A stretch of DNA of 64,000 nt from an uncultured delta proteobacterium. GTDB taxonomy: Bacteria > Myxococcota_A > UBA9160 > SMWR01. Shown here in pieces: positions 143 to 60,083 of the stretch. The notes under the pieces are model-generated. The model was not told the DNA's origin and made no database searches. It worked only from the letters and a program-made list of their open reading frames with translations. Every line of letters begins with the position of its first letter. The stretch's first letter is position 1. The DNA lies in assembly GCA_963832165.1 (NCBI GenBank), contig CAWHTE010000004.1, positions 64,001-128,000 on the forward strand, read 5' to 3'. The position numbers and the translations under genes are program-made.

Positions 143-1267
143 GTGACCGCGCTCTCGCCGACTCAACGTCTGTTGCGCGCGTGCCGCGGCGAGCCGGTCG
201 ACCGCCCGCCGGTCTGGCTGATGCGGCAGGCGGGCCGCTACCTGCCCGACTACCGGCGCGTGCGCGAGCAGGTGTCGTTCCTCGAGCTGTGCCGCGACGT
301 CGATCGCGCGGTCGAAGTCTCGCTTCAGCCGATCGATGCGATCGGCTCGGAGGCGGTGATCTTCTTCTCGGACATCTTCACGCCGATCCCGGGCATGGGC
401 GTCGAGGTCGACTTCCGGCCCGGACCCGTGGTCGCGGCGCCGATCCGCAGCGCTGCCCAGGTGGAGCGTCTGCGCGTGCCCGATCCGCGCGAGAGCGTTC
501 CGTTCGTGTTCGAGATCCTGCGCACGCTGCGCCGCGAGCTCGCCGCGCGCGAGATCCCGCTGCTCGGATTCGCGGGCGCGCCGTTCACGCTCGCGGCCTA
601 CCTCGTGGAGGGGGCCGGCTCGCGCCACTTCAGTACCTGGAAGCGCATGCTCTGGCGCGAGCCCGCGCTCGCCCGCGCGCTGCTCGACCGGCTCACCGAT
701 CTCACGGTCGGCTACCTCGGCGCGCAGATCGAAGCGGGCGCCCAGGTGGTGCAGATCTTCGACACCTGGGCGGGCATGCTCTCGCCCGGGGACTACCGCG
801 AGTGGGTGCTGCCGACCCACCGCGAGATCGCGGCCAAGCTCGACCGCTCCGCGCCGCTGATCCTCTACGTGAACGATGGCGCCCATGTGCTCGAAGAAAC
901 AGCGGAAAGCGGGGCAGACGTGATCTCGCTCGACTGGCGCGTCGACCTCGCCGACGCCGCGCGGCGCGTGGGCGCGCGCGTGAGTCTCCAGGGCAACCTC
1001 GATCCGTGCGCGCTCGCGGCCGATCCCGAGACGATCGCGCACAAGGTGCGCGAGCTCGCGCGCGCGGCGGCACCCGCGCGCGGACACATCATGAACCTGG
1101 GACACGGCTGCCTGCCCGACACGCCCGTCGAAGGCGTGCGCGCATTCACGGATGCCGTGCGCTCGCTGAACGCAAGTTTCGCGCAGCGAGTGCAAGTTTC
1201 GCGCAGCGAGCCGGAGGCGAGCGAAGACCAGCAGCTAGCCGAGCGAAGGCAATCTGGGGGGTCATGA
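143..1267 (+). CDS. hemE: Uroporphyrinogen decarboxylase with a repeat-derived C-terminal tail
   Basis: PVWLMRQAGRYLPDY, FSDI, GFAGAPFTLAAY, LQGNLDP and NLGHG motifs. Confidence 0.97.
   Translation: MTALSPTQRLLRACRGEPVDRPPVWLMRQAGRYLPDYRRVREQVSFLELCRDVDRAVEVSLQPIDAIGSEAVIFFSDIFTPIPGMGVEVDFRPGPVVAAPIRSAAQVERLRVPDPRESVPFVFEILRTLRRELAAREIPLLGFAGAPFTLAAYLVEGAGSRHFSTWKRMLWREPALARALLDRLTDLTVGYLGAQIEAGAQVVQIFDTWAGMLSPGDYREWVLPTHREIAAKLDRSAPLILYVNDGAHVLEETAESGADVISLDWRVDLADAARRVGARVSLQGNLDPCALAADPETIAHKVRELARAAAPARGHIMNLGHGCLPDTPVEGVRAFTDAVRSLNASFAQRVQVSRSEPEASEDQQLAERRQSGGS
1173..1230 (+). repeat. 38-bp junction repeat: half copy (1173-1190) plus full copy (1193-1230), translated within the hemE C-terminus
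   Basis: CAAGTTTCGCGCAGCGAG-TG-CAAGTTTCGCGCAGCGAGCCGGAGGCGAGCGAAGACCA. Confidence 0.9.
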
Positions 1268-2668
1268 GCGATCCGTTCTCGATCGAGCTCGACCGGATCG
1301 CGGAGCTGCTGCCGCGCTACGCGATCGACGGGCCGCGCTACACGAGCTACCCGACCGCGCCGGTGTGGACCGCGGACTACGGCGCCGACGACTACCGCGC
1401 CGACCTCGCCGACGACGAGATCGAGGCGAGCGATGGCCTCTCGCTCTACGTGCACGTGCCGTACTGCGACTCGCTGTGCCACTTCTGCGCCTGCAACAAG
1501 GTGATCACGACCGATCACACGCGCGCGGCCGGCTACCTCGACACGATCGAGCGCGAGATCGAGGCGGTGCGCGCGGCCACGCGCGTGCCGCGCGCGGCGA
1601 CGCAGCTGCACTGGGGCGGTGGAACGCCCACCTGGCTCGCGCCGGCCGAGGTCCAGCGCCTGTTCCGCTCGCTCGTCGAGGCGTTTCCCATGCGCACGGA
1701 CGCCGAGATCTCGATCGAGGTGGACCCGCGCGTGACCACGCGCGAGCACATCGACGTGCTCGCCGAGTGCGGGTTCAACCGCATCTCGATGGGCGTACAG
1801 GACTTCGACCCGCGCGTGCAGCAGGCGGTGCACCGGATCCAGCCTGCCGCCGAGACGGCGCGCCTGGTCGAGTGGGCGCGCCGCGCCGGGCTTCGAGAGC
1901 GTGAACTTCGACCTGATCTACGGGCTGCCGTACCAGACGCCCGCGAGCTTCGAGCGCACGCTCGACCAGCTGTTCGCGATCGGCCCGGATCGCATCGCGC
2001 TCTACTCCTACGCGCACGTGACGTGGATCGCGAAGCAGCAGCGCGGCTTCGAGCGCAAGGACCTGCCCGATGCCGCGACGAAGCTCCAGATCATGCTCAC
2101 CGCGATCCGGCGCTTCCTGGCCGAGGGCTACCTGTTCATCGGGCTCGACCATTTCGCGCGCGAGGGCGACGAGCTCGCGAAGGCGCTCGCGGATCGCTCG
2201 CTGCGCCGCAATTTCATGGGCCACACGACCCAGGCTGGCGTCGATCTGATCGGCTTCGGCCCTTCCGCGATCAGCGAGCTGCGCGCGAGCTATGCGCAGT
2301 CACAGCGCGAGGTCCCGGCCTGGGAGGCGGCCGTGCGCGAGCACGGCGTGGCCACGATGCGCGGCCATCGCCTGTCGCGCGCCGACATCGAGCGGCGCTG
2401 GATCATCAACCGGATCCTGTGTCACGGCGAGCTGCGCGCACGCGACTACGAAGAGACGTTCGGGCGCGCGTTCGCGGAGGCCTATCGGCCCGAGCTCGCA
2501 TCGCTCGATCAGGCGCGCGCGGACGGCCTGATCGAGTGCGATACGGACGGCAGCCTGCGCGTCACGCCGATCGGGCGCCTGCTCGTGCGCACCATCGCGA
2601 TGGCGTTCGACGCCTATCTGCCCGAGCAGCAGAAGAGCGGGTCGCGGATCTTCAGCAAGACAGTCTGA
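1264..2668 (+). CDS. hemN: Oxygen-independent coproporphyrinogen III oxidase (radical SAM); apparent +1 frameshift near 1888-1890
   Basis: GPRYTSYPTA, CDSLCHFC (CxxxCxxC) and HWGGGTPT in one frame; NFDLIYGLPYQT, GLDHFA and RRNFMG in the next frame. Confidence 0.93.
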
Positions 2669-2680
2669 CTTCGCTCGGCT

Positions 2681-3067
2681 CTACGACTCCCAGTGCCGAT
2701 CGCCGCGGCGGCGATCGTGCCGGTCGTGCCTCCGGTGATGGCGGCGCTCGTAGCGGTCGTGCTGGCGATCGTGCCGCCGGTCGAGGTAGCGGTGGAAGCC
2801 GCGGTGCTGCCACCGATCGGCGTACGGGCTGTTCCAGTCATGCCACGTGCGGTGTTTGCGGTCGAGATGGCGGTGGCCGCTGCGGTGCTCGCGGCCCTGC
2901 CAGCGATGTCCGCCGCGGTGGTCGTCATCGAAGTCGCGGTAGGACTCGCTGTGTCCACCGCGGTTGTTCCAGTCGACGTACCGATCAGCCGCAGAAGCGT
3001 CACTCGCGATCAGCAGCCCCAGTACGCCGACGGCTCCCGCGAGCGCGGGGCCCAGAGAGATATGCAT
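2681..3067 (-). CDS. Small secreted His/Arg/Asp-rich low-complexity protein
   Basis: Strong RBS (AGGAGGAG) before ATG; signal peptide ending ASA-A; 17 His in the ~100-aa mature region. Confidence 0.7.
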   Translation of the reverse strand: MHISLGPALAGAVGVLGLLIASDASAADRYVDWNNRGGHSESYRDFDDDHRGGHRWQGREHRSGHRHLDRKHRTWHDWNSPYADRWQHRGFHRYLDRRHDRQHDRYERRHHRRHDRHDRRRGDRHWES

Positions 3068-3179
3068 CGGATCTCCTCCTGTTTCCGGCGCGTCCTCTGC
3101 GGCAGCGCCGGGTTGATGAAGCCGACACGCGCACGCTCGCGCGAATTCGATCGCGCTTCTGTGCGAGAGGGTGGGGAGA

Positions 3180-6026
3180 TCACCTGGGGGACGTGCCGTC
3201 TACCGCAGCCTCCAGGTCGGGCAGGGCGACGCCGCGCGCGAGCTGCTCGGAAGCGCGCAGGCCGCGAGCGCACGCCCCGGTGTCCTCTCCATCGGGGGCG
3301 CAGCGCCGCCACACCTCCACGAGCTGCGCGGGATCGAACGGCTCCGCGTGGGCATAGGCGCGCCTGTACAGCCGGGTCCACTCGATCGCCTCGTCCGGCG
3401 GTATGCGACCTGACGGCGCTGGCGCGGATGGATCGGCACCGAGCAGCCGCTGCAAGCGCTCCAGGTATCGGGGCCCGCGCTCGCGCAGCATCTCGGCGAG
3501 CGGCGCGAAGCGCTCGGGATTCGGGTGCGCGTTCGCCCACGCCGCTGCGAGCCCGCCACAGTTGGAAAGCACCGCCCGGCACGCGCGCCACGCGGCGTGG
3601 TCGAGGGCCTCGCGCGCCTCGTCGCCCGACAGCTGCGCGCGGTAGCGGCCCAGCAGCGAGTTGGCCGTCCCGATCTCCGCGGGCGCGCCGTAGCCCGTGA
3701 ACGGCACCGACCCGCGGCCGCCCGTGAAGAAGGCACGTCCGGCCACGAAGCTCAGGCGCGGGTGAATCAGCGAATGGACCGGCCCCCGGAGCGCGGCCGC
3801 GTGGACGACGCCGAGCGGAAGCGTTTCGTGGGCGAGCCAGGTCGCGAGGTCCGTGGCCTCGAGGCGCCGGAGCGCCAAGTGAAAGTCCGGTTGTTGCATG
3901 CGCGCTGCGAGACGCTCGAGGTCGAGCGCCCACATCGGGTCGCGGAAACCCAGAATCAGGGCGTCCGCGTAGTTCACGGTCCAGACGGCGACGTGATCGA
4001 AGACGCTCGCATAGGTCTCGAGCACGAGCTCGATCGTCGCGTCGCTGGTGTCGTAGAAGTGGAACCACTGGGCGAACACACCGCGCGGCGTCAGGTGATC
4101 GCGCGCTGCGGCGAGAAACTCCTGCGAGTAGAGCATCTCGACACCGGTCACCCACGGATTGCTCGGCTCCGAGATGATCACGTCGTATTGGCGCGCGCTC
4201 CGGACGAGCGCGCGGTAGGCGTCGCTGTGGACGAACGTCAACTTGGGATTGCGCGAGACGCCGTAGTTCCCGAAGTCGAACAGTGGCGCCGCGGCGATCA
4301 CGCCCGACGAGATCTCGGCCACCGTGATGCTCTGCGTCTCCGCGAGCTGGGAGAGCTCCCCCGCCGTGATCCCGGTCCCGAAGCCGATCACGAACGCGTT
4401 CTCGGCGCGCTCCGCGAACAGCGCCGGCACCACCGCGAGCATTGCCATCGTCCCGTAGTCGCCGGTCGTGTTCCCGTCCGACTTCCCGTTCACGAACAGG
4501 CTGCGACTCGAGGCGCGCGCACCCTGAGAGAATTCGCGGACCGTCACCGTGGTGTTCGGATCGTCGTCGTGGAACACGATCCGGCTGTTCGGGATGTAGT
4601 GGGCGAGCCCCGAGGGGCCGTCCCAGGTCCAGTCCGTGGACTTCCGCTCGCGGAACACGCCCGACGCGAGATAGGCAGGACGCCACGGCGGCAGCGCAGC
4701 GATCGCGATCAGCGAGGCGATTCCGAGCGCCGCGGTGCCCGCGAGCCCGATGCGCGCGGACTGGCGCCACGTCGCGATCGATGCCGCGAGTACGAGCGCG
4801 CACAGAGCGATCCGGTACACGTGATGCAGATCGAGCCAGACCAGGAGCGCATAGCCGCCGATCAGCGCGCCGAGCAGCGAACCGACCGTGTTCACACTGT
4901 ACAGGCGCCCCGCCTGCGAGCCGAGCTCGCCGACCTCGCGCCGCAGCGCGTGGAACGAGAGCGGCAGCGCCGCGCCCGAGAACACCACCGCGGGCCCGAT
5001 CGCGAGCAGCACGGCGAGGAAGACGCCGCCGTAGAACGGGTAGAACGCCGACTCGGTGTCGCCGAACGCGATGCGGACGAGGTGCGCCCAGTAGGGCGCG
5101 GTCTCGAGTCCGAAGTAGAGCGCGCTGAACAGGATCGCGAGCACCCACAGCGCGGCCGGAAGCGCCAACCGGGGGATCCGTGTGAATGCCGAGACCGCGA
5201 AGCTGCCGACCGCGATGCACACCACGAAGACGGCCACCACGATCGTGAACGTGTACTCCGACGAGCCGAACGAGAGGCCGCTGATCCGGATCACGGTGGT
5301 CTGGAGCACCATCATCGCGAAGCCCACGAGCAGCGCGATGCCGCCGTAGACGGCGAACACGCGCGCGCCGAGCGGTGGTGCTCCCTCCGTTTCGAGCTCG
5401 GCGAGCGGAGCCGCAGAGCGGCTCAGTGCCGCGAACGCGGCCCCGATCGCGAGATTCACGGCCCCCATCGCGTAGAGCGTGCCCTCGAGCCCGAGCCCGT
5501 GGATCAGCACGAAGCCGGTCGCGAGCGTTCCCGCAAACGCGCCCGCGGTGTTGGACGCATAGATCTGCGCGTGAACGCGCGTGGCGTCGGCCAGATTGCG
5601 CGCGAGCGCCTGGGTCAGGATCGGGATCGTCCCACCCATCAGCGTGGCGGGTGGCACGATCAGCGCGGCCGCGAGCGCGACGTCGACCGCAAAGCCGAGT
5701 GCTCCTTCGCCGCCGGGCAGCGTGGCCGACGCGCTGCGCACGAGCGCGAAGGTCCAGGGGAACCCGAGGCACCAGAGCCCGATGCCCGCCTCGACACCGC
5801 CGTAGACGGCGAGCAGGGAGCGTTCGCGCTCGACGAGCCGCCTCGTCAACGCGCCGAACAGCCAGTACCCGAGCGAGAGGCCGCCCAGGAACAGGCCCAA
5901 CACGGCCGCGGTCGCCTCGCTGTGCGCGCCCAGCAGGATCGCGAGGTACTTCTGCCAGGTGACCTCGTAGGCGAGCCCCGTGAACCCGGAGAGCACGGTG
6001 AGCGCGAGGGCGGCGGGTCGCAGCAT
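3180..6026 (-). CDS. Fused MFS-like membrane domain / spermidine synthase-like SAM-dependent transferase
   Basis: Many TM helices, repeated LY..NT.G motifs, VIGFGTGITAG, EIS, DA, YDVIISEPSNPW. Confidence 0.88.
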   Translation of the reverse strand: MLRPAALALTVLSGFTGLAYEVTWQKYLAILLGAHSEATAAVLGLFLGGLSLGYWLFGALTRRLVERERSLLAVYGGVEAGIGLWCLGFPWTFALVRSASATLPGGEGALGFAVDVALAAALIVPPATLMGGTIPILTQALARNLADATRVHAQIYASNTAGAFAGTLATGFVLIHGLGLEGTLYAMGAVNLAIGAAFAALSRSAAPLAELETEGAPPLGARVFAVYGGIALLVGFAMMVLQTTVIRISGLSFGSSEYTFTIVVAVFVVCIAVGSFAVSAFTRIPRLALPAALWVLAILFSALYFGLETAPYWAHLVRIAFGDTESAFYPFYGGVFLAVLLAIGPAVVFSGAALPLSFHALRREVGELGSQAGRLYSVNTVGSLLGALIGGYALLVWLDLHHVYRIALCALVLAASIATWRQSARIGLAGTAALGIASLIAIAALPPWRPAYLASGVFRERKSTDWTWDGPSGLAHYIPNSRIVFHDDDPNTTVTVREFSQGARASSRSLFVNGKSDGNTTGDYGTMAMLAVVPALFAERAENAFVIGFGTGITAGELSQLAETQSITVAEISSGVIAAAPLFDFGNYGVSRNPKLTFVHSDAYRALVRSARQYDVIISEPSNPWVTGVEMLYSQEFLAAARDHLTPRGVFAQWFHFYDTSDATIELVLETYASVFDHVAVWTVNYADALILGFRDPMWALDLERLAARMQQPDFHLALRRLEATDLATWLAHETLPLGVVHAAALRGPVHSLIHPRLSFVAGRAFFTGGRGSVPFTGYGAPAEIGTANSLLGRYRAQLSGDEAREALDHAAWRACRAVLSNCGGLAAAWANAHPNPERFAPLAEMLRERGPRYLERLQRLLGADPSAPAPSGRIPPDEAIEWTRLYRRAYAHAEPFDPAQLVEVWRRCAPDGEDTGACARGLRASEQLARGVALPDLEAAVDGTSPR

Positions 6027-6109
6027 CGCGGCAGTATCACCGAATCGGAGCGGTCCTGTGTCGGGTCGCGGGATGCCAAGTCGCGAATTCTCTTCCAAAG
6101 TCTGGGCCG

Positions 6110-8490: not shown

Positions 8491-9257
8491 GCGCCATCCC
8501 GGTGGACTTCGCTCGCCCTCGGCTCGCTGCGCGAGTATTGCGTCCAGAGGTTCCACCACTGCCCGAGCCACGCGGAGATCGCGACGTAGTAGGCCGGGTA
8601 CACGAGCGAGACCCACGCCGCGCGCTCGCGCTCGGGGGAGGGCGGCATCCCCGCGATCAGCGCCATCGCGATCATCCAGAGCATTCCGCCGGCTGCACTG
8701 ACGCCGCGCAGGCGCCGCATCTTGCTCGGGTAGATGTACTTGAGCGGTACGAAGGTCAGCGCGGCGAACAGCGCGATCCAGGCAGTGGCCACGGCGGACG
8801 ACATCTCGAGCAGCCAGACATAGAGCGCGACGACGTTCCAGTACGAGGGCCAGCCCAGGAAGAAATCGTCCTCGGTCTTCACGTCGACCTGCGCGAACGC
8901 GTAGGAGGCCGCGAGCACGGGGAGCAGCACGAAGCTCCAGTGCGCGAACGCGCCCAGCGCGAGCAGGAACACCACGGGGACGATCGCGTAGTTCAGGTAG
9001 TCGACGACGTCGTCGAGCGTGCGCCCGTCGATCCGCGGCAGCTGCTCCGCCACCCCGACCCGGCGCGCGAGCGTGCCGTCGACCGAATCGATTACGAGCG
9101 CAGCGAGCATGTAGATCACCGCGCGCGCGAAGCCACCGCGGCCGATCTCCCAGAGCGCGAATACCCCGAGCACGGCACCGCTCGCGGTGAACAGATGCAC
9201 CGACCAAGCCAGCGCTTGGCGGGTGGTGAGGGCTGTCGGCGCACCGTGACGGGCCAT
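8487..9257 (-). CDS. pcs: Phosphatidylcholine synthase-type CDP-alcohol phosphatidyltransferase
   Basis: DG-x2-AR-x8-P-x3-G-x3-D-x3-D motif (DGTLARRVGVAEQLPRIDGRTLDDVVD), AWSVHLFTASG, F.GWPSYWNVV. Confidence 0.8.
   Translation of the reverse strand: MARHGAPTALTTRQALAWSVHLFTASGAVLGVFALWEIGRGGFARAVIYMLAALVIDSVDGTLARRVGVAEQLPRIDGRTLDDVVDYLNYAIVPVVFLLALGAFAHWSFVLLPVLAASYAFAQVDVKTEDDFFLGWPSYWNVVALYVWLLEMSSAVATAWIALFAALTFVPLKYIYPSKMRRLRGVSAAGGMLWMIAMALIAGMPPSPERERAAWVSLVYPAYYVAISAWLGQWWNLWTQYSRSEPRASEVHRDGA
8503..8540 (-). repeat. 38-bp junction repeat in the pcs C-terminus, 12 nt before the hemH start
   Basis: Minus strand CAATACTCGCGCAGCGAGCCGAGGGCGAGCGAAGTCCA, encoding QYSRSEPRASEVH. Confidence 0.88.
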
Positions 9258-9916: not shown

Positions 9917-9920
9917 GGGG

Positions 9921-9958
9921 CAAGTTTCGCGCAGCGAGCCGCAGGCGAGCGAAGTCCA
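9921..9958 (+). repeat. 38-bp junction repeat, nuoB-lipB intergenic
   Basis: CAAGTTTCGCGCAGCGAGCCGCAGGCGAGCGAAGTCCA. Confidence 0.9.
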
Positions 9959-9970
9959 TAAGGGGGGAGC

Positions 9971-20473: not shown

Positions 20474-20520
20474 GGATCCGGGTCGCTACATTGCGGCGGC
20501 AAGCGGCCCCCGCCGCACCG

Positions 20521-20558
20521 CAAGTTTCGCGCAGCGAGCCGAAGGCGAGCGAAGACCA
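20521..20558 (+). repeat. 38-bp junction repeat (consensus copy) upstream of nuoI
   Basis: CAAGTTTCGCGCAGCGAGCCGAAGGCGAGCGAAGACCA. Confidence 0.92.
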
Positions 20559-20592
20559 GCGGGGGGGCGGAGCCGAGCGGAGTCAATAGGAC

Positions 20593-21165
20593 GTGCCGGG
20601 CAGGGTCATCGTGGTGAAGCGCGCCGAGAAGCTCGGCCTGCTCGAGCGCCTCTACGTGCCGATGATCCTCAAGGGCCTCGCCGTCACGGCCGGCCACTTC
20701 TTCCGCAACCTGCGCGGGTTCGTCTCCGGCAAGAACCGCACCGACTTCGTCGTCCAGTACCCCGAAGAGCTCGTCGACTATCCCGATGCGTTCCGCGGCA
20801 TGCCCGTGCTCGTACAGCTCGACAACGGCCAGCCCAAGTGCGTCGCGTGCGGCCTGTGCGAGTTCGCTTGCCCGACCGACTGCATCAGCATCGTCCCGGG
20901 CGAGCTCGAGGGCTCGCGCATCGAGCGCTACCCCGAGGCGTTCGACATCGACATGTCGCGCTGCATGTTCTGCGGCCTCTGCGAAGAGGCGTGCCCCGAA
21001 GAGGCGATCGTGATGAGCCGCGAAGTCGAGCTCGCGACCTACGATCGCGGCTCGATGCTCTACGACAAAGAGCGCCTGCTCGTGCCCGATGCGCTGCTCG
21101 AGCGCCGGCTCGGCTTCCTGCGCGGGGAGTACGACCGCGAGCACGCGCAGGAGAAGCACCGCTGA
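20593..21165 (+). CDS. nuoI: NADH-quinone oxidoreductase subunit I
   Basis: QYPEE, FRG, CVACGLCEFACP and CMFCGLCEEACP (two [4Fe-4S] motifs). Confidence 0.93.
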   Translation: MPGRVIVVKRAEKLGLLERLYVPMILKGLAVTAGHFFRNLRGFVSGKNRTDFVVQYPEELVDYPDAFRGMPVLVQLDNGQPKCVACGLCEFACPTDCISIVPGELEGSRIERYPEAFDIDMSRCMFCGLCEEACPEEAIVMSREVELATYDRGSMLYDKERLLVPDALLERRLGFLRGEYDREHAQEKHR

Positions 21166-21695
21166 TGGAGGATCACGGGCAGGTTTCGCGCAGCGAGCCG
21201 AAGGCGAGCGAAGACCATGGGGATACGGTCCTGCGGCGCCTGATCGCCGCGATGCCCGAGGCGGTGACGTCGACACACGCGCATCTCGGCGATGCGACCG
21301 CGGTGGTCGCCGCATCCCGACTGATGGAGGTGATGCGCTACCTGCGCGACGACCGCGAGCTCGCGTTCGAGATGCTGATGGACGTCTGCGCGGTGGACTA
21401 TCTGCCGCGCGTACCGCGCTTCGAGGTGGTCTATCACCTCTACTCGATCGTGAAGAACCACCGACTCCGCGTGAAGGTGCTCGTGGACGGGAAGACGCCC
21501 AGCGTGCCCAGCGTGGTCAAGCTCTGGCTGTCGGCGAACTGGATGGAGCGCGAGGTGTTCGACCTCTACGGGATCCGTTTCGAAGGCCATCCCGACCTGC
21601 GGCGGATTCTGTTGTACGAGGAGTTCGAAGGCCATCCGCTGCGCAAGGACTATCCGAAGGAGCGCCGCCAGCCGCTCGTGGGTCCGAGGAACTGA
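21165..21695 (+). CDS. nuoC: NADH-quinone oxidoreductase subunit C with a repeat-derived N-terminus
   Basis: DVCAVDY, RFEVVYHL, ANWMEREVFDLYGIRFEGHPDLRRIL, GHPLRKDYP; TGATG coupling to nuoI. Confidence 0.93.
   Translation: MEDHGQVSRSEPKASEDHGDTVLRRLIAAMPEAVTSTHAHLGDATAVVAASRLMEVMRYLRDDRELAFEMLMDVCAVDYLPRVPRFEVVYHLYSIVKNHRLRVKVLVDGKTPSVPSVVKLWLSANWMEREVFDLYGIRFEGHPDLRRILLYEEFEGHPLRKDYPKERRQPLVGPRN
21180..21217 (+). repeat. 38-bp repeat in frame in the nuoC N-terminus
   Basis: CAGGTTTCGCGCAGCGAGCCGAAGGCGAGCGAAGACCA, encoding QVSRSEPKASEDH. Confidence 0.92.
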
Positions 21696-23157: not shown

Positions 23158-23677
23158 CACGGCGGGTCCGGCGCAAGTCTCGCGCAGCGACGCGAAGCCG
23201 AGCGAAGGCCATCGTGCGGGCGGACCGCCGCCGCTGCGCCCGTTCGGGCTCGTGCTGCATCACGACGGCAGCTGGACGCACGAGGGGCACCCGATCCGGC
23301 ACGCGAAGCTGCGCGAGCACTTCGACCGCAGCGTGGTGTACCTGCCCGCGGAGCAGAAGTACGTCGTGACGCTGCGCCACTTCCGCGGCGAGATCACCGT
23401 GGAGGAGGCGGCCTTCTTCGTGCGCGCGTTCGAGCCCGGGACGGCGCGCATCGCGCTCTCCGATCGCAGCGAGGAGACGCTCGATCCCACCACGCTCGCG
23501 ACGTCGCCGATCGACGGTGCGCTCTTGTGCCGCGTGAAGCGCGCGCTCGCGTTCGAGGGACTGCTCGCGCGCTTCACGCACGCGGCTGCGGCCGAGCTGC
23601 TCCACGCGGTGGATGCCGCGCCGTCGGGCATGCGGCTGTGCGTGGCGGGCGTCTGGCACGCGCTGCCCGACCTCTGA
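23117..23677 (+). CDS. DUF1285-like protein; start uncertain
   Basis: DGSWTHEGHPI, VEEAAFFV, LLCRVK...ARFTHAA resemble DUF1285. Confidence 0.65.
   Translation: MRPTDPRSPSAKTDTAGPAQVSRSDAKPSEGHRAGGPPPLRPFGLVLHHDGSWTHEGHPIRHAKLREHFDRSVVYLPAEQKYVVTLRHFRGEITVEEAAFFVRAFEPGTARIALSDRSEETLDPTTLATSPIDGALLCRVKRALAFEGLLARFTHAAAAELLHAVDAAPSGMRLCVAGVWHALPDL
23174..23211 (+). repeat. Diverged 38-bp repeat at the 5' end of the DUF1285-like gene
   Basis: CAAGTCTCGCGCAGCGACGCGAAGCCGAGCGAAGGCCA, encoding QVSRSDAKPSEGH. Confidence 0.8.
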
Positions 23678-27363: not shown

Positions 27364-27400
27364 CAAGTTTCGCGCAGCGAGCGAAGGCGAGCGAAGACCA
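27364..27400 (+). repeat. Junction repeat (1-nt deletion) 4 nt before the rlmB start
   Basis: CAAGTTTCGCGCAGCGAGCGAAGGCGAGCGAAGACCA. Confidence 0.9.
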
Positions 27401-27404
27401 TAAG

Positions 27405-30193: not shown

Positions 30194-30246
30194 CAACGCG
30201 CGCAGCGAAGTGATCCGCGCGCGCCGACGCGCGCGAGCAGTGTCGA

Positions 30247-43472: not shown

Positions 43473-43630
43473 CCGCCAGTTTTTCGACTTAGGGCCGCTC
43501 TCCCGCGGTTCGCCTCCGACGAGCGGAGGGGGTTCCTCGAAGCGCATCGCTTCCGGTCCCTCCGCGAGCGGCAGGCTGAACGTGGGGGAGCGGTGTCTTT
43601 CGGGAATCAAACTTTCTTTTGAGCGCTGGG

Positions 43631-43658
43631 CAAGTTTCGCGCAGCGAGCGAACGACCA
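43631..43658 (+). repeat. Internally deleted junction repeat in the rpsL 5' leader
   Basis: CAAGTTTCGCGCAGCGAGCGAACGACCA. Confidence 0.8.
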
Positions 43659-51780: not shown

Positions 51781-51974
51781 AGGCGAAGGAATGGCGCGAT
51801 CTCAACCTCGAAGAGGTCGAGGCGAAGGCGAGTCAGCTGCGGGGCGAGCTGTTCACGGCACGGATTCGCAAAGAGACCGGACAGCTCGAGAACACGGCGA
51901 AGCTTCGAACGCTTCGCCGCGACATCGCTCGCGCGGAGACGATCCTGCGCGAGCGACGCGGAGCGGGTGAATGA
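51777..51974 (+). CDS. rpmC: 50S ribosomal protein L29
   Basis: GQLENT...RRDIAR; synteny. Confidence 0.94.
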
Positions 51975-52234: not shown

Positions 52235-52251
52235 AGAATGGACGAGCGATC

Positions 52252-52620: not shown

Positions 52621-52621
52621 G

Positions 52622-53164
52622 ATGACGCCGCGACTGCTCGAACGATACCGGTCCGAGATCGTACCGAAGCTCTCGCAGGAGTTCGGGTTCAAGAACGTCC
52701 ACCAGGTACCGCGCCTCGAGAAGGTGGTGGTGAACATGGGCGTCGGCAAAGCGACGCAGAACGCGAAACTGATCGAGAAGGCCGCCGAGGAGCTCGCGGC
52801 GATCACGGGCCAGAAGGCCGCGGTCCGGAAGGCGCGCAAGTCGATCGCGAACTTCAAGCTGCGCCAGGGCCAGGCGATCGGCTGCACCGTGACGCTGCGC
52901 GGAACGCGCATGTGGGAGTTCTTCGATCGTCTCGTGAACGTGTCGCTGCCGCGCGTGCGCGACTTCAAGGGCGTCTCGGTCAAGGCATTCGACGGCCGCG
53001 GCAACTTTTCACTGGGGATCCGCGAACAGATCATCTTTCCCGAGATCGACTACGACTCGGTGGAGAACATCACTGGGCTCAACGTCACGGTGGTGACGAG
53101 CGCCCGCAACGACGCCGAGGGCAAGGCGCTGCTCGCGCACCTCGGCATGCCTTTCCGTCCCTGA
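52622..53164 (+). CDS. rplE: 50S ribosomal protein L5
   Basis: ITGQK, LPRVRDF.G, FDGRGN, FPEI. Confidence 0.98.
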
Positions 53165-53179
53165 GAGGAACTCCTCCGT

Positions 53180-53575
53180 ATGATGACCGACCCGATCGCC
53201 GACATGTTGACGCGCATCCGCAACGCGGGCTCCGCGCGGCACGCGCAGACTTCGTGCCCTTCCTCGAAGGAGAAGGTCGCGATCGCGACCGTGCTCCAGC
53301 GCGCGGGCTTCCTCGACTCGGTGAAGGTGGAGGAGCGCGACGGCCACCCGAGTCTCGTGCTGGGCATCCGCTACGACGAGGCGGGGCGGCCGCTGATCGA
53401 CGGCATCCAGCGCGTGAGCAAGCCCGGGCGACGCGTGTACGTGGGCAAGGAGGAGCTGCCGCGCGTGCGCAACGGGCTCGGCGTGGCCGTGATCTCCACC
53501 TCGCGCGGAGTGCTCTCGGACCGCGAAGCCCGCGAGCAGAGCCTCGGCGGCGAGCTGCTCTGTGAGGTCTGGTAG
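53180..53575 (+). CDS. rpsH: 30S ribosomal protein S8
   Basis: DPIADMLTRIRN, SKPGRRVY, GGELL. Confidence 0.98.
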   Translation: MMTDPIADMLTRIRNAGSARHAQTSCPSSKEKVAIATVLQRAGFLDSVKVEERDGHPSLVLGIRYDEAGRPLIDGIQRVSKPGRRVYVGKEELPRVRNGLGVAVISTSRGVLSDREAREQSLGGELLCEVW

Positions 53576-53577
53576 GC

Positions 53578-54126
53578 ATGTCGCGCATCGGTAATCGACC
53601 CGTCGAGATCCCCTCCGGTGTCACCGTCGACAAGATCGACGGCGGCGTCCGCGTGAAGGGTCCGAAGGGCACGCTCTCCGAGCAGCTGCCCCCGACGATC
53701 GGCGTGGAGATCGAGAGCGGGCAGGTCGTGTTCCGCCGCGCCGACAACAGCGGGCCGACCCGCGCGCTGCACGGGCTCGTACGGGCGCTCGTGAACAACA
53801 TGGTGAAGGGCGTGCAGGCGCCGTTCGTGCGCGAGCTCGAGATCCAGGGTGTCGGCTATCGCGCCGAGGCGTCGGGCAAGAAGCTCACGATGCTGCTCGG
53901 CTACTCGCATCCGATCGAGGTCCCGGTGCCCGAAGGGCTGTCGGTCTCCGTCGATCGCAACGTGATCGTCCGGATCGAGGGAATCGATCGCCGCCGGGTC
54001 GGGCAGTTCGCGGCCGACATCCGCGCGCTGCGCCCGCCGGAGCCCTACAAGGGCAAAGGGGTCCGGTACATCGACGAGCGCGTGCGGCGCAAGGTCGGCA
54101 AGGCGGCTGCCGGCTCGGCGGGTTGA
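53578..54126 (+). CDS. rplF: 50S ribosomal protein L6
   Basis: MSRIG, GVGYRA, PEPYKGKG. Confidence 0.98.
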   Translation: MSRIGNRPVEIPSGVTVDKIDGGVRVKGPKGTLSEQLPPTIGVEIESGQVVFRRADNSGPTRALHGLVRALVNNMVKGVQAPFVRELEIQGVGYRAEASGKKLTMLLGYSHPIEVPVPEGLSVSVDRNVIVRIEGIDRRRVGQFAADIRALRPPEPYKGKGVRYIDERVRRKVGKAAAGSAG

Positions 54127-54139
54127 CGGTAAGCGGAGT

Positions 54140-54169
54140 GCGCAGCGAACCGCAGGCGAGCGGACATCA
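54140..54169 (+). repeat. Degenerate junction repeat, rplF-rplR intergenic
   Basis: GCGCAGCGAACCGCAGGCGAGCGGACATCA. Confidence 0.65.
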
Positions 54170-54199
54170 TTAGGTCGGGCGCGCGGAGACAAACGAGCG

Positions 54200-54568
54200 A
54201 TGAAACGCAAGATTCGAGACGAGGCCGATCGCAAGTGGCAGCTGCGCAAGCGGCGCAGCGCGGGATCCGTGTCGCGCAGCACGCGCGCGCGCGTGACCGT
54301 GTTTCGCAGCGCGCGCCACATCTATGCGCAGCTCATCGACGCGACTTCGGGGCGCACGATCGGGTCCGTGTCGAGCCGCTCGAAGGCGATCGTCGGCGAC
54401 GGCCAGACCGGCAACGTCGAGGCCGCGAAGAAGGTGGGCGCCGCGCTCGCGGCGCTCGCGCGCGAGCACCAGATCCAGGAGGCCGTGTTCAACCGGAACG
54501 GCTTCCTCTACCACGGACGCGTCAAGGCGCTCGCCGACGCAGCCCGCGAGGCCGGGCTTCGGTTCTAG
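54200..54568 (+). CDS. rplR: 50S ribosomal protein L18
   Basis: VFRS.RHIYAQLID, YHGRVKALADAAREAGL.F. Confidence 0.97.
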   Translation: MKRKIRDEADRKWQLRKRRSAGSVSRSTRARVTVFRSARHIYAQLIDATSGRTIGSVSSRSKAIVGDGQTGNVEAAKKVGAALAALAREHQIQEAVFNRNGFLYHGRVKALADAAREAGLRF

Positions 54569-54606
54569 TGGCGAAGCCGCCAACTCCAAACGATTCGAAG
54601 GAATGA

Positions 54607-55095
54607 ATGCCGCAACTCAATGCAAATGACTACGAGCTGACCGATCGCGTCGTGCACATCAACCGCGTCGCGAAGGTGGTGAAGGGCGGACGCCGCTTCA
54701 ACTTCAGCGCACTCGTGGTGGTCGGAGACGGTGCGGGCGTGGTCGGTGCCGGGTACGGCAAGGCCGGCGAGGTGCCCGAGGCGATCCGAAAGGGCATCGA
54801 GCGCGCGCGCAAGTCGCTGATCGAAGTGCCGCTCCAGGACGGACGCACGCTGCCGCACGAGATCATTGGCCACTTCGGCGCCGCGCGCGTGCTGCTCAAG
54901 CCGGCTGCGCCCGGCACGGGCGTGATCGCGGGCGGCCCCGTGCGCGCGGTGCTCGAGGCGGCCGGCGTCCACGACGTGCTCACGAAGACGCTCGGCACGA
55001 GCAACCCGATCAACGTCGTGCGCGCGACGATGACGGCGTTGCTCGAGCTCCGCGATCCCGAAGAGCGGCTCGCCCAGCTGCAGGGGAACGTGTGA
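54607..55095 (+). CDS. rpsE: 30S ribosomal protein S5
   Basis: [23 protein letters not shown]. Confidence 0.98.
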
Positions 55096-55325
55096 TGGCG
55101 CCGCAAGTTTCGAGCAGCGAGAAGGCGGGCGAAGGCCAGAAGGCGGGCAAGACGGTCTCGGTGCGCTGGGTGAAGAGCCAGATCGGATTCGATCAGCGCC
55201 AGCGCGCAACGCTGCGCGGGCTCGGTTTCCGGCGCCTGAACCAGCGCGTGCAGCTCGAGGATACGCCCTCGATCCGCGGGATGATCTACAAGGTGCGCCA
55301 CCTCGTCGTGGTGGAGGAAGGCTGA
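55095..55325 (+). CDS. rpmD: 50S ribosomal protein L30 with a repeat-derived N-terminal extension
   Basis: [32 protein letters not shown] coupling to rpsE. Confidence 0.95.
55104..55138 (+). repeat. Diverged repeat (3-nt deletion, frame kept) in the rpmD N-terminus
   Basis: CAAGTTTCGAGCAGCGAGAAGGCGGGCGAAGGCCA, encoding [12 protein letters not shown]. Confidence 0.75.
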
Positions 55326-55768
55326 TGCTCGATCGACTCTCGCCGCGACCGAACTCGCGTCGAAAGATCAAGCGCGTGGGCCGCGGGCCCGGCTCCGGCA
55401 ACGGCAAGACCTCGGGCCGCGGCGTCAAAGGGCAGGGCAAGCGCTCGACCGGACGCGAGACCCCGTTCCATTTCGAGGGCGGTCAGATGCCGCTCGTGCG
55501 GCGCGTGCCCAAGCGCGGCTTCCACAGCCTGTTCGGCACCACCTACCGGATCATCAACGTCGGCTCGCTCAAGCCCTACGGCGACGGCGGCGAGGTGGAT
55601 CCCACGAACCTCGAGCGGCGCGGGCTCGTCGAGCACGGGCGCGGCGGCGTGAAGCTGCTCGCCGAGGGCGAGCCGCCGCGCAATCTGCGCGTGAAGGTGC
55701 ACCAGGTCAGCGCTGCGGCGCGCAGGAAGATCGAAGAGGCGGGTGGCTCGGTGGAGCTCCTCGGATGA
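55325..55768 (+). CDS. rplO: 50S ribosomal protein L15
   Basis: RVGRG.GSG.GKT.GRG.KGQ, FEGGQMPL.RR.PKRGF. Confidence 0.98.
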   Translation: MLDRLSPRPNSRRKIKRVGRGPGSGNGKTSGRGVKGQGKRSTGRETPFHFEGGQMPLVRRVPKRGFHSLFGTTYRIINVGSLKPYGDGGEVDPTNLERRGLVEHGRGGVKLLAEGEPPRNLRVKVHQVSAAARRKIEEAGGSVELLG

Positions 55769-57075
55769 TCGCTGGCGTCCAGAACATCGGGAGGATCACG
55801 GAGCTCCGGCAACGGATCCTCTTCACGTTCGGGATGCTCGCGGTCTACCGCGTGGGCGCGTACATCGTCACGCCCGGCATCGATCCCGAGGTCGTGCGCA
55901 ACTTCTTTGCGCAGATGCAGGGAACGATCTTCGGCCTGTTCACGCTGTTCTCGGGCGGAGCGCTCGAGCAGCTCTCGATCTTCTCGCTGGGCATCATGCC
56001 CTACATCAGCGCCTCGATCATCTTCCAGCTGCTCACGATCGTGATCCCGCAGCTCGAGGAGCTCAAGAAGGAAGGCGAGCAGGGTCAGCGTCGGATCAAC
56101 CAGTTCACGCGTTATGCGACGATCGGGCTCGCGCTGTTCCAGGGCTTCCTGCTCGCGGTCGCGCTCGAGAACGGCCAGTTCGGCGCGGGTGCGGTCACGA
56201 ACCCGGGCTGGGCCTTCCGGATCATGTGCGCGCTCACGCTCACCACGGGCACCGCATTCATCATGTGGCTGGGCGAGCAGATCACCGAGCGCGGCATCGG
56301 CAACGGAATCTCGCTGATCATCTTCGCGGGCATCATCATCCGGATCCCGTCGGCGATCGCGAATCTGTTCGACCTGATCAGCACCGACCAGTTCTCTCTG
56401 CTCCAGACCGTTGTGTTCGCCGCGATGGCGGTCTTCGTGGTGTTCCTCGTGATCATCGTCGAGCGCGGCCAGCGCCGGATCCCGATCCAGCACGCGCGGC
56501 GCGTGGTGGGAAAGCGCGTCCAGCAGGGCGGCATGACCTACTTCCCGCTGCGCGTGAACACGGCGGGCGTGATCCCCGCGATCTTCGCGTCGTCGCTGCT
56601 GCTCTTCCCGCTCACGGTCGGCCAGTTCACCAACACGCCCGCGGTCGAGCAGTTCATCCAGGACTACATGAATCCGGGCGGCTGGGTGTACGAGGGGATC
56701 TACGTCGGGCTGATCGTCTTCTTCACCTACTTCTACACGGCGATCATGATCAACCCGGTCGACGTCGCCGAGAACATCAAGCGCTCGGGCGCGTACATTC
56801 CGGGCATCCGGCCCGGCAAGAAGACCGCCGAGTACATCGACCGCATCCTCTCGCGGATCACGCTGGTCGGCGCGCTCTACATCTCGGCCGTGTGCGTGCT
56901 GCCGACGCTCCTCGCCACCCGCATGGGGCTCCCGTTCCAGTACGGCGGAACGGCGCTCCTGATCGTGGTGGGCGTCGGACTCGACACGATTGCCCAGATC
57001 GAGGCGCACCTCGTCTCGCGCCAGTACGAAGGCTTCGCGCAGGGCGCGCGGATCCGGGGACGGTTGCAGCGATGA
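55765..57075 (+). CDS. secY: Preprotein translocase subunit SecY
   Basis: SIFSLGIMPYISASII, GIGNGISL, IPGIRPG, GGTALLIVV. Confidence 0.98.
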   Translation: MIAGVQNIGRITELRQRILFTFGMLAVYRVGAYIVTPGIDPEVVRNFFAQMQGTIFGLFTLFSGGALEQLSIFSLGIMPYISASIIFQLLTIVIPQLEELKKEGEQGQRRINQFTRYATIGLALFQGFLLAVALENGQFGAGAVTNPGWAFRIMCALTLTTGTAFIMWLGEQITERGIGNGISLIIFAGIIIRIPSAIANLFDLISTDQFSLLQTVVFAAMAVFVVFLVIIVERGQRRIPIQHARRVVGKRVQQGGMTYFPLRVNTAGVIPAIFASSLLLFPLTVGQFTNTPAVEQFIQDYMNPGGWVYEGIYVGLIVFFTYFYTAIMINPVDVAENIKRSGAYIPGIRPGKKTAEYIDRILSRITLVGALYISAVCVLPTLLATRMGLPFQYGGTALLIVVGVGLDTIAQIEAHLVSRQYEGFAQGARIRGRLQR

Positions 57076-57641
57076 CCGCGCGGCGCCTACTCATGTTGGG
57101 CCCCCCCGGGGCCGGGAAGGGCACCCAGGCGCAGCGTCTGGTGCAGAAGCTCGGGGTGCCGCAGATCTCGACGGGCGACATGCTGCGCGCGGCGGTCGCC
57201 GGAAAGACCGCGATGGGTCTCCTGGCGCAGGCGGTGATGGCGCGCGGCGACCTCGTGTCCGACGACATCGTGATCGCCGTGGCCGAGCAGCGCCTCGCTG
57301 CTGCCGACGCGCGGCGCGGCTTCATCCTCGACGGCTTTCCGCGCACGCCAGGCCAGGCGGCTGCGCTCGACGCCATGCTCGGGCGCCTCGGCACGCCGCT
57401 CGAGCGCTGCATCGCGCTCTCCCTCGACGACGACACCATCGTGCGCCGACTGCTCAAGCGCGCCGAGATCGAGGGCCGCAGCGACGACAACGAGGAGACG
57501 GTCCGCAAGCGCTTGAAGGTCTACCAGTCGCAGACCGAGCCGCTGATCGCCCACTACTCGCCGCAGGGCATCGTGCGCGCCGTGGACGGCAACGCGAGCG
57601 TCGACGAGGTGGCGAAGCGGATCGAGGAGGCGCTGTCGTGA
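57072..57641 (+). CDS. adk: Adenylate kinase (short, LID-reduced type)
   Basis: GPPGAGKGTQA, STGDMLR, LDGFPRT, GRSDD. Confidence 0.96.
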   Translation: MTARRLLMLGPPGAGKGTQAQRLVQKLGVPQISTGDMLRAAVAGKTAMGLLAQAVMARGDLVSDDIVIAVAEQRLAAADARRGFILDGFPRTPGQAAALDAMLGRLGTPLERCIALSLDDDTIVRRLLKRAEIEGRSDDNEETVRKRLKVYQSQTEPLIAHYSPQGIVRAVDGNASVDEVAKRIEEALS

Positions 57642-58429
57642 TGTCCTATCGCGAGCGGATCCCGATCAAGACGAAGCGCGAGCTCGAGACGATGCGCGAG
57701 GCCGCCCGCCACGTGGCCGAGATCCTGCTCGAGCTGCGGGAGCGGGTGAAGCCCGGCATCACCACGGCCGAGCTGGATCGGTTCGCCGAGAAGTCGATTT
57801 CGGCTCGGGGTGTGCGCTCGTCGTTCAAGGGCTACGATCCGCACGGCCTACCCAAGTATCCGGCCGTCCTCTGCGTCTCCGTCAACGACGAGATCGTCCA
57901 CGGCATCCCCGGACCGCGAGAGCTCGCGGAAGGGGACATCGTGAGTCTCGACTTCGGTGTCTCGGTGGATGGCTACCACGGTGATTCGGCCGTGACGGTG
58001 CCGGTCGGAGAGATCTCGGACGATGCGAAGCGGCTGCTGGAGGTTTCCCGGCAGTCCCTGAACGACGCGATGGAGGTGATGAAGCCCGGGGCCCGTCTGT
58101 CGGACCTCGGAAACGCTGTGCAGCGGACGGCCGAGGCCGCCGGCTTCTCGGTCGTGCGCGAGTTTGCGGGGCACGGGATCGGTCGCGCGCTCCACGAGCC
58201 GCCCTGGATCCCGAACTACGGTCACCCGGGACGCGGGCCGCGACTGCTGCCCGGCATGGTATTCGCGGTGGAGCCGATGCTCACCGCGGGCCGACCCGAT
58301 GTGCGAATGCTCGACGACGATTGGACCGCGGTGACCGCGGACGGGTCGCTGGCCGCCCATTTCGAGCACACGATTCTCGTGACCGAGGATGGCAGCGAGA
58401 CGCTCACGCGGATCGCGGGATCCCACTGA
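57641..58429 (+). CDS. map: Methionine aminopeptidase type I
   Basis: SVND.IVHGIP, DG.HGD, GHGIG..LHE.P, EPM, AHFEHT. Confidence 0.97.
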
Positions 58430-58442
58430 TTCGAGGCATGTG

Positions 58443-58556
58443 ATGAAGGTGAGAGCTTCCGTCAAGAAGATCTGTGCGAAGTGCCGCGTCGTCCGGCGCG
58501 GCGGGGTGATCCGCATCATCTGCGAGAACCCCAAGCACAAGCAGCGACAAGGCTAG
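58443..58556 (+). CDS. rpmJ: 50S ribosomal protein L36 (Zn-binding form; not in the ORF track)
   Basis: [37 protein letters not shown]. Confidence 0.97.
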
Positions 58557-58565
58557 GAGCACGCC

Positions 58566-58949
58566 ATGGCACGCATCGCTGGAGTCGACCTGCCGCGCAA
58601 CAAGCGGATCGAGATCGCACTGACCTACATCCACGGCATCGGGCACACGAGCGCCGCAAAGATCTGCGCGAAGGCCGACGTTCCGCCGGAGACCAAGACC
58701 GAACGCCTCGCCGACAGCGAGCTCGTGCGGCTGCGCGAGGTGATCGAGCACGACTTCACGGTCGAGGGCGATCTGCGCCGCGAGACCGCGCAGAACGTCA
58801 AGATGCTGATGGACATCGGCTGCTACCGCGGCCTGCGCCATCGCCGCGGGTTGCCGGTGCGCGGCCAGCGCACGCACACCAACGCGCGCACGCGGAAGGG
58901 TCCGGTGAAGACGGTGGCCGGCAAGAAGCAGGCGATCACGAAGAAGTAG
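58566..58949 (+). CDS. rpsM: 30S ribosomal protein S13
   Basis: [24 protein letters not shown]. Confidence 0.98.
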
Positions 58950-58956
58950 CAGGCCG

Positions 58957-58996
58957 CAAGTTTCACGAAGACCATCAGGTAGGCGAGCGCAGACCA
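58957..58996 (+). repeat. Rearranged junction repeat, rpsM-rpsK intergenic
   Basis: CAAGTTTCACGAAGACCA-TCAGGT-AGGCGAGCGCAGACCA; both repeat ends present, 3' end duplicated. Confidence 0.65.
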
Positions 58997-59011
58997 TCAG
59001 GAGAGTGAACC

Positions 59012-59392
59012 GTGGTGAAGGCCGGGAAGAAGAAGGTCAAGAAGAGCGTCCAGTCGGGTGTGGTGCACATCCAGTCGACGTTCAACAACACGATCATCTC
59101 GATCACGGATCCGTCCGGCGGCGTGCTCGCGTGGTCGAGCTCGGGCGGAGCCGGATTCAAGGGATCGCGCAAGTCGACGCCGTTCGCGGCCCAGGTGGCC
59201 GCGGAAGATTGCGCGAAGAAGGCGATGGAGCACGGAGTTCGACAGGCCTCCGTGTACGTCAAGGGCCCGGGTGCCGGCCGCGAGTCGGCGGTTCGCGCGA
59301 TCCAGGCGGCGGGGATCAAGGTGTCGTTGATCAGGGACGTCACCCCGATTCCCCACAACGGTTGTCGGCCGAAGAAGCGGCGACGCGTCTAG
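59012..59392 (+). CDS. rpsK: 30S ribosomal protein S11
   Basis: [32 protein letters not shown]. Confidence 0.98.
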
Positions 59393-59405
59393 AGGACATC
59401 GAATA

Positions 59406-60032
59406 ATGGCTCGCTACAACGATGCGGTGTGTCGGCTCTGCCGTCGGGAGGGCACCAAGCTCTTCCTGAAGGGCGACCGCTGCTTCACCCCCAAGTGCGG
59501 CGTCGAGCGCCGCAGCTATCCGCCCGGACAGCACGGCCAGGGCAGGACGCGCTTCTCCGACTTCGGCGTGCAGCTGCGCGAGAAGCAGAAGGTCCGCCGC
59601 ATGTACGGCCTGCTCGAGAAGCAGTTCGCTCGCACGATGGACCGGGCGGCGCACATGAAGGGCCGCACGGGCGAGAATCTGCTCGTGTTGCTCGAGCGGC
59701 GGCTCGACAACATCGTGTTCCGGCTCGGCTTCGCGACGTCGCGCGCGGAAGCGCGTCAGCTCGTGCGCCACGGCCACTTCACGGTGAACGGGCGCAAAGC
59801 GAGCATCCCGTCGATGCTCTTGCGCGCGGGCGACGTCGTGATCCTGCGCGAGGGATCGCGCGAGATCGTGCGCATCACCGCCGCGCTCGAGGCGCTCGAA
59901 GGCAAGAGCGTCCCGGGCTGGCTCGACATCGACAAGACGAACTTCGCCGGCTCGGTGAAGCAGCTTCCGGTTCGCGAAGACATCACGATGCCCATTCAGG
60001 AACAGCTCATCGTCGAGCTGTACTCGCGCTAG
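59406..60032 (+). CDS. rpsD: 30S ribosomal protein S4 (Zn-finger form)
   Basis: CRLCRREG...C...[14 protein letters not shown]. Confidence 0.98.
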
Positions 60033-60045
60033 TCGCCCGTTTCGG

Positions 60046-60083
60046 CAAATTTCGCGCACCGAGCCGGAAACGAGCGAAGTCCA
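60046..60083 (+). repeat. Diverged 38-bp junction repeat, rpsD-rpoA intergenic
   Basis: CAAATTTCGCGCACCGAGCCGGAAACGAGCGAAGTCCA. Confidence 0.78.

Follow-up and report, generated by a model that had tools for sequence, protein, structure and literature searches.

How bacterial repeats shorter than 50 nt move without a dedicated transposase is an open question. The repetitive extragenic palindromic sequences (REPs) of the GTAG and CGTC types, with the REPINs that they form, are described in excerpts of PMC3733652 and PMC3116915 as hairpin-forming units of 20–50 nt that number in the hundreds, sometimes lie in frame within genes and can end in a CCA tail; the first of these excerpts presents the way in which CGTC REPs move as an open question. 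Rickettsia palindromic elements (RPEs) are selfish, occur in frame in conserved proteins and are apparently tolerated there (extract of PMC2229807). The small dispersed repeats (SDRs) of the Nostocaceae, to which PMC5861425 refers, are very small, mobile and structured, prefer a short motif and have no known transposase. Mycobacterial interspersed repetitive units (MIRUs) are short and mobile, sit at operon junctions in the orientation of the genes and form tandem arrays (PMC12548453, in part). Here we describe a repeat that shares these traits, found in 64,000 nt of DNA (positions 64,001–128,000 of contig CAWHTE010000004.1, hereafter the window) from an uncultured delta proteobacterium of the Myxococcota_A. 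The source genome, G000, is 5.5 Mb long and 89% complete. A first-pass annotation, made from the letters of the window alone, had pointed out a 38-bp repeat on coding strands at gene junctions and had offered two explanations, a non-autonomous mobile element or a domesticated mRNA signal. We conclude that the repeat is probably mobile DNA: a non-autonomous element of very small size that is active as a folded single strand.

Insertion of a 42-nt unit into hairpin loops

A profile hidden Markov model seeded with seven window copies gave 198 matches of at least 15 bits in the source genome, which form 188 loci; the reversed genome, our control, gave one. The repeat is real, but its length had been underestimated: it begins one base earlier, with GCAAG, and the unit is 42 nt, with net inserts of 42–48 nt. 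The subtype of the window, type A (102 copies), has a sharp 5ʹ GCAAG start, is 90–100% conserved over most of 39 nt and then fades across ~9 G-rich bases. Forty type-A copies are identical except at two free positions, and tandem copies have a period of 42 nt. The genome also carries ~35 type-B and 28 type-C copies, in which the first hairpin is longer. In the wider family, GCAA comes first, then a variable hairpin that G..C closes, then GCGCA, the central hairpin and GRAG, and last a variable tail. The 5ʹ GCAAG end, with GCAGG allowed, is present in 169/183 copies of the source genome, and the GCAA-G..C arrangement in 155/188 distinct copies from other genomes; GCAAG occurs in 3% of control windows. 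The position profile of 62 non-nested type-A copies contains no terminal inverted repeats, and the upstream and downstream flanks of non-nested copies do not pair with each other above shuffled sequences. Rfam, by gathering score and by E-value, returned no family, only tRNAs and sub-threshold matches; no named family was matched, and the annotation had recognised none. In the type-A 3ʹ tails genome-wide, TGG lies 3–11 nt past the final CCA in 31/91 copies, where 13 are expected, which suggests a small third hairpin with a variable loop.

We examined 28 sites in alignments with six congeners, which are 76–90% identical to the source genome (the closest ~86%). Twenty-five sites have an alignable orthologue that spans them, and each of these lacks the repeat in one congener or more; a two-sided orthologue is lacking for the window copies at 9921 and 20521 and for C5:360651. 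No site is occupied in all congeners, and five of the 25 are also filled by a family copy in one or two of them, in some cases of another subtype. Empty sites extend to the ribosomal operons (rpsL, rplF-rplR, rpsE-rpmD, rpsM-rpsK and rpsD-rpoA). At G000:C2:295716 the junction is clean: the filled allele is longer by exactly 42 nt than those of G003 and G005, with no target-site duplication. Other coding sites have net inserts of 42, 45 or 48 nt, and at some sites the G-rich tail is partly target sequence. Target-site duplications are not in excess over shuffles, in agreement with the annotation; the single excess in this test, a 5-mer at 48 nt in 8 copies, most likely reflects nested host halves. 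In-frame inserts add 14–16 residues to RadA (in a loop), NuoC and L30 (rpmD), and further in-frame hosts, judged by motifs, are presumably PurH-, BirA- and Sua5-like. Copy number ranges from 2 (in G001) to 199 among the six congeners and from 0 to 304 among 40 relatives. In our sample of the phylum, 19/37 genomes of the same class have a match, compared with 5/163 outside the class, two of which have at least 8 copies. Empty orthologous sites, variable copy number within the genus, and in-frame and nested inserts support the mobile-element option.

The empty sites at nuoC, C2:295716 and C2:300485 resemble parts of the element, an anecdotal hint of homology-guided joining. At C2:300485 (L209:6486), the source genome, G003 and G006 each carry a copy at one and the same end of a gene; the first hairpins of these copies differ, and their left arm overlaps codons of the empty allele. 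Here, the hairpin may have been built from target sequence, or one old insertion may have been lost in three congeners.

The preferred targets are hairpin loops. The central hairpin of an older copy is split by 21/102 type-A copies, and the hosts are often type B or C; simple slippage is thereby ruled out. Eight more type-A copies lie in other hairpin hosts, GTAG REP loops among them, two are in tandem and nine have one host half; the remaining class of 62 un-nested copies includes a few that look nested on inspection. Hairpin hosts cover ~0.3% of the genome. Four copies are inserted in GTAG REPs, in the loop; the empty form of these REPs is abundant. Nested copies keep the strand of the host hairpin; the four REP-hosted copies follow the strand of the REP, in antisense or convergent gaps. 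None of the 188 loci mixes strands.

Strand bias, predicted fold and rival explanations

By our own gene calls, 77/188 loci are in open reading frames (ORFs), 69 of them sense and 8 antisense (32:2 for mid-gene copies), and are in frame where checked. The other 111 are intergenic: 53 sense and 20 antisense in tandem gaps, 29 in divergent gaps and 9 in convergent gaps. Altogether, 150/188 loci are co-oriented with the nearest gene. Hence, the strand preference noticed in the window is strong genome-wide, but does not apply to every copy. The sense bias is present on both the leading (55:10) and the lagging (29:12) replichore; these counts are approximate, with replichores from our own scripts and 56 loci that have no clear replichore. 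A replication-strand cause is ruled out, because the bias follows transcription on both replichores. Target availability is likewise ruled out, as coding strands have fewer of such hairpins, not more. The proposed position before start codons did not survive the genome-wide count, with a same-strand start no more than 34 nt past the end of the copy at just 37/188 loci. In tandem gaps, the median distance of a copy is 15 nt to the stop upstream of it and 41 nt to the start downstream. The corresponding gaps in congeners are often just 7–12 nt long, and therefore any insert falls near both a stop and a start. Of 80 loci in other genomes, we could assign 52, namely 23 as sense, 7 as antisense, 17 as convergent and 5 as divergent.

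The central 17 nt can be drawn as G-C, C-G, G·A, A·G, G-C, C-G and C-G pairs around a GNA loop. In a search that left the five paired positions free, 134/151 matches in the source genome pair at all five, and the control gave one match. One pair flips from C-G to G-C in 43. Across 188 copies from other genomes, C-G forms the outer pair in 165, T-A in 22 and C·A in 1, and the switching pair is C-G in 113, G-C in 73 and broken in 2; both switches recur in distant phyla. These fold counts are of copies, not of events. In the source genome the middle base of the loop varies (A 108, C 22, G 12, T 5), whereas its G, its A and the C-G closure are fixed. Covariation thus supports the predicted hairpin, with its C(GNA)G triloop and its G·A pairs in tandem. 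Such pairs prefer a pyrimidine-GA-purine context. According to an extract of PMC13037366, only GNA loops form such DNA mini-hairpins, which resist nucleases, and a related RNA hairpin is far less stable. For this reason, the structured molecule is more likely to be single-stranded DNA than RNA.

The core of the repeat is present in many independent assemblies, with record titles that are mostly Myxococcota or Deltaproteobacteria metagenome-assembled genomes. A pattern in which the first loop and two pairs were free matched at least 122 stretches. Among the matches listed, record titles include Acidobacteriota, Binatia, Solirubrobacterales, Collinsella, Gemmatimonadota, Bacteroidales and others, of which single contigs may be misbinned; records titled “Spirochaetales” were left out of the cross-phylum evidence because their DNA and genes resemble the group of the window. 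Again among the matches listed, both free positions pair in 120/136, and the core lies in the loop of a REP-like arm at 71/122 loci, 48 of them of [CT]GTC type. In five such genomes the REP-like arm occurs both with and without the extra 20 nt. One contig (G234:C1, L445) has 484 matches to the REP-like arm, with loops that lengthen in 5-nt GCGNA steps (+0, +5, +10, +15 and +20 nt); the core is one +20 form. In G041 (L210-L214), we saw 8 copies of an imperfect palindrome of ~240 bp with the core at both ends, facing outwards. Its arms have diverged yet still pair, and the inverted pairs there belong to the 240-bp composite. Two related tailed-phage contigs (L422:317-420 and L423:4686-4762) have three copies of the motif in one intergenic stretch, upstream of terminase- and portal-like genes.

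How would such an element move? We envisage an enzyme, acting in trans, that would recognize the fold, i.e. the variable G..C-closed hairpin followed by the G·A-pair hairpin with its C(GNA)G loop. Donor and target would both be single-stranded. The 42-nt unit inserts without duplicating its target, often with a few bases changed at the 3ʹ junction, and it prefers the loops of existing GNA-type hairpins and keeps the host strand. The coding-strand bias would arise because transcription exposes the non-template strand to insertion, and selection against antisense copies would sharpen it. Copies survive where damage is least: in protein loops and ends, in frame, and in short operon gaps. Candidates for the enzyme are an HUH-type nuclease and a host repair or recombination route.

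Several observations weigh against the reading of the repeat as a mobile single strand. We found no mobilising gene in the source genome with profiles for Y1_Tnp, reverse transcriptase, DUF559 and GIY-YIG, other nuclease and integrase families not being searched. Reverse transcriptase and DUF559 had no match in this 89% complete genome, and the single GIY-YIG match sits in a 625-aa frame that we infer to be UvrC. There are 12 Y1 genes, one true RAYT and 11 weaker matches, and no copy of the repeat lies within 1.3 kb of any of them; the RAYT flanked by the repeat that the annotation had envisaged is thus not among them. Thirty-eight of the 188 loci are off the coding strand of the nearest gene, and much of the strand bias could be due to selection alone. 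Exact junctions are available at few sites, because the congeners are only 76–90% identical. Tandem G·A pairs form in RNA too. Finally, nearest-neighbour folding, a method that cannot score sheared G·A pairs, prefers a different outer stem.

The Y1 genes themselves fall into two groups. The true RAYT (L002, G000:C4:535321-535956) is flanked by GTAG REPs; the REPs of the genome have hairpin loops of the GNA / G·A kind that are interchangeable, and 85/145 REP matches lie in convergent gaps. The eleven others (L001 and L003-L012, e.g. C2:485111-485863 and C11:62773-63468) are related Y1-type HUH genes of ~235 aa that score below the RAYT cut-off where tested. Many are bounded by an inverted GAGGGAAG / CTTCCCTC-type motif, not by REPs, and similar multi-copy Y1 sets occur in several relatives. 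A non-autonomous IS200/IS605 derivative was rejected: the bias follows transcription and not the lagging-strand template, and the flanks of the Y1 genes are unlike the repeat.

It is quite unlikely that the repeat derives from REPs and is moved by the resident RAYT (TnpA-REP) or by the second Y1 family. Such an origin would fit the presence of a true RAYT with its GTAG REPs, the same GNA / G·A hairpins in REP loops, a 5ʹ hairpin that can be given an AA/GC internal loop similar to that of E. coli REPs (PMC8266576, in part) and a CCA end that matches the CGTC-REP tails of the PMC3733652 excerpt. However, the repeat has no GTAG or CGTC tag, forms no inverted doublets and stays clear of Y1 genes, and 9/111 of its intergenic loci are in convergent gaps, compared with 85/128 for the resident REPs. 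Nor does the presence of Y1 genes track repeat copy number across 41 genomes: G003, G004, G005 (99% complete) and G016 have 93–199 copies and no Y1 match, and G015 has 7 Y1 matches and no copies, with Y1 scores near the cut-off in these genomes. The other option of the annotation now appears highly improbable, namely that copies ahead of start codons serve as a domesticated signal in the mRNA, for translation, processing or the binding of a protein. The coding-strand bias, the enrichment in a window rich in ribosomal and nuo genes, the purine-rich 3ʹ end, and the 21/29 divergent-gap copies that are nearer the same-strand start would all suit a signal of this kind. It is contradicted by the absence of any site common to all congeners, by a congener with only 2 copies, by the 32 sense copies in mid-gene, and by copies that are nearer to stops than to starts; in other genomes, there is a same-strand gene before 40/52 classed loci and after 28. 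Furthermore, the 325 neighbouring genes have no functional theme and no enriched paralogue family, and their codon index, a proxy for expression, is not shifted (p 0.11); their G+C content at third codon positions is slightly higher.

A different objection accepts mobility and questions the strand rule. Insertion of the same mobile repeat could be blind to strand, with the bias arising wholly from selection, if antisense copies add hydrophobic peptides or stops, resemble Rho-loading sites and lack a purine-rich 3ʹ end usable as a ribosome-binding site. Several counts agree with this: the reading frames of in-gene copies are used unevenly (36:26:7), antisense frames encode more hydrophobic peptides and one has a stop, the antisense strand is C/U-rich (9 pyrimidine-C dinucleotides vs 4), the bias is weaker in tandem gaps than in mid-gene, and the last 70 nt of the gene hold 31/69 sense in-gene copies, where 7% is expected. 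Nonetheless, two of the three antisense frames are open, and nested copies are always on the strand of the host hairpin, even when this is antisense to genes; we therefore consider a purely selective origin of the bias rather unlikely. The 26-nt core may be a single module that is shared, or else a fold that has come about repeatedly. In the latter case, it would arise by (GCGNA)n slippage in hairpin loops and subsequent palindrome-perfecting repair, and only the local type-A unit would be block-copied. The stepwise loops of G234, built of GCGNA units, and shorter forms in the REP loops of the source genome make this a real possibility, if not the one that we favour, given that this core recurs, its two covarying pairs included, in unrelated contexts in many phyla. 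Repeated origin concerns only the core and leaves the mobility of the 42-mer untouched.

A broader proposal, of a transposase-free micro-element, is doubtful. Nuclease-resistant, folded single-stranded DNA of ~42 nt would be joined by host enzymes into non-template GNA-hairpin loops during transcription, and the 26-nt core, with its three GNA motifs, would be one cross-phylum module that explains the spread of tagless or RAYT-less repeats (CGTC REPs, SDRs and RPEs) and peptide additions to proteins. If the core is indeed one such module, several repeat families now treated apart become linked; if the repeat is just another lineage-specific one, it is a well-characterised new family. In both cases it is a live source of protein insertions, and it offers specific handles on the question of movement: a 42-nt unit, exact empty and filled junctions, a same-strand GNA-loop target, a covarying fold and a strand rule tied to transcription.

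Copies in the 64-kb window

The window is the densest of 87 genome windows, with 10 loci against a mean of 2.2 (corrected Poisson p ~0.008). The eight full copies were placed correctly, strands included, by the first-pass annotation, and score 36.7–46.2 bits; those that it gave as deleted or degenerate, at 43631, 54140, 55104 and 58957, belong to the family too (58957 by motif only). The gene names hemN, lipB, nuoI, nuoC, rlmB and rpmD hold, and the gene labelled DUF1285 has no NCBIfam match. All features below are on the plus strand unless marked as minus.

The supposed half copy at 1173 is a piece of the family, but not an independent one: it is the left half (1172–1191) of an older copy that was split by a type-A unit (1192–1233) in its central hairpin loop, and whose right half is at 1238–1248. 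The inserted unit is in frame in the 3ʹ end of hemE, and the hemE stop overlaps the hemN start. Ahead of hemH, another type-A unit (8500–8541, minus) is in frame at the 3ʹ end of a gene for phosphatidylcholine synthase; the site of this unit is empty in 3/3 congeners (net 42–45 nt). Hence, these two copies, which had been assigned to the space before the next start codon, lie instead within the upstream genes. A probable 3ʹ-half fragment, plausible by motif only, is at the end of a minus-strand gene (2666–2681, minus); the signal of the other suggested fragment, 30194–30210, is too weak to call.

A type-A unit lies between nuoB and lipB (9920–9961), where gene order differs in congeners. Before nuoI, a type-A unit (20520–20561) is nested in an older copy of another subtype, and the two span 20499–20582. 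The unit at 21179–21220 is in frame in the first codons of nuoC and its site is empty in 3/3 congeners. In G003 (L261), the orthologue of 21165–21180 is a tandem repeat of the nuoI-stop/nuoC-start junction, and the element of the source genome is just downstream. Two further type-A units, each at a place that is empty in 4/4 congeners, are at 23173–23214, with a swapped base pair in the central stem, and just before rlmB (27364–27403), with a 1-nt deletion.

In the ribosomal operons, an internally deleted copy is in the rpsL leader (43630–43658; empty in 2/2 congeners), and a degenerate copy lies between rplF and rplR (54129–54169), where the congener gap is 7–8 nt. A second degenerate copy is in frame just after the rpmD start (55103–55144; empty in 3/3). 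A deleted, nested-looking copy is between rpsM and rpsK (58956–59001; empty in 4/4), and a type-A unit is between rpsD and rpoA (60045–60086; empty in 4/4 congeners that span the site). Single frameshifts in conserved genes, at ~1900 (hemN) and ~29470 (the first tuf copy), are probably assembly errors, and given these, single-base indels in repeat copies may be assembly errors too. No RNA run was among the sequencing runs listed, no run contained more than 0.11 of the words, the contigs of four runs bridge no site, and a plasmid collection gave no match that reached 80% query coverage.

Comparison with described repeat families

Five exact 16–17-nt pieces of the core or of the REP-like arm had no match in the papers searched; the CGTC consensus figures and a paper on SDRs by Elhai from 2008 may bear on novelty. 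Three terms are absent from the text supplements of PMC3733652.

The repeat differs from each of its closest counterparts. RPEs are 105–146 bp long and have terminal inverted repeats (extract of PMC2229807), whereas the repeat adds 42–48 nt and has none. Compared with SDRs, which are 21–27 nt long, our repeat is about twice as long and from another lineage. MIRUs insert at start codons and have a coupled mini-ORF at –4 spacing (PMC12548453, in part); here, RTGA precedes 3/169 tagged copies, and type A has no 5ʹ start codon. Empty orthologous sites are shared with class II MITEs (miniature transposable elements with inverted repeats), the terminal inverted repeats and target-site duplications of which are missing. 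C(GNA)G loops with a free middle base are shared with the DNA mini-hairpins of single-strand origins and N4 promoters in the PMC13037366 extract, which names the same 7-nt hairpin in RSF1010 ssiA; those are single functional sites, and the repeat is without replichore bias. A primosome assembly site (ssi/pas) was rejected, on the basis of the ColE1 site alone, against which the best score was 30, within the shuffled range.

With GTAG and CGTC REPs the repeat shares a hairpin fold in the single strand, backed here by covariation. REPs carry a terminal tag before the stem, and the repeat starts with GCAAG. REPs are often inverted doublets (REPINs or BIMEs), an arrangement seen at none of our loci. 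REPs are mostly extragenic, lie downstream of genes and are rich in convergent gaps, whereas two-fifths of our loci (77/188) are in ORFs and the repeat is co-oriented with transcription. GTAG REPs flank a RAYT, and our repeat flanks none of the 12 Y1 genes. Furthermore, the repeat inserts into the loops of REPs as well as into its own. In summary, it works in the way that REPs, RPEs, SDRs and MIRUs do, and it is set apart by the features that define a REP, a MITE or a MIRU.

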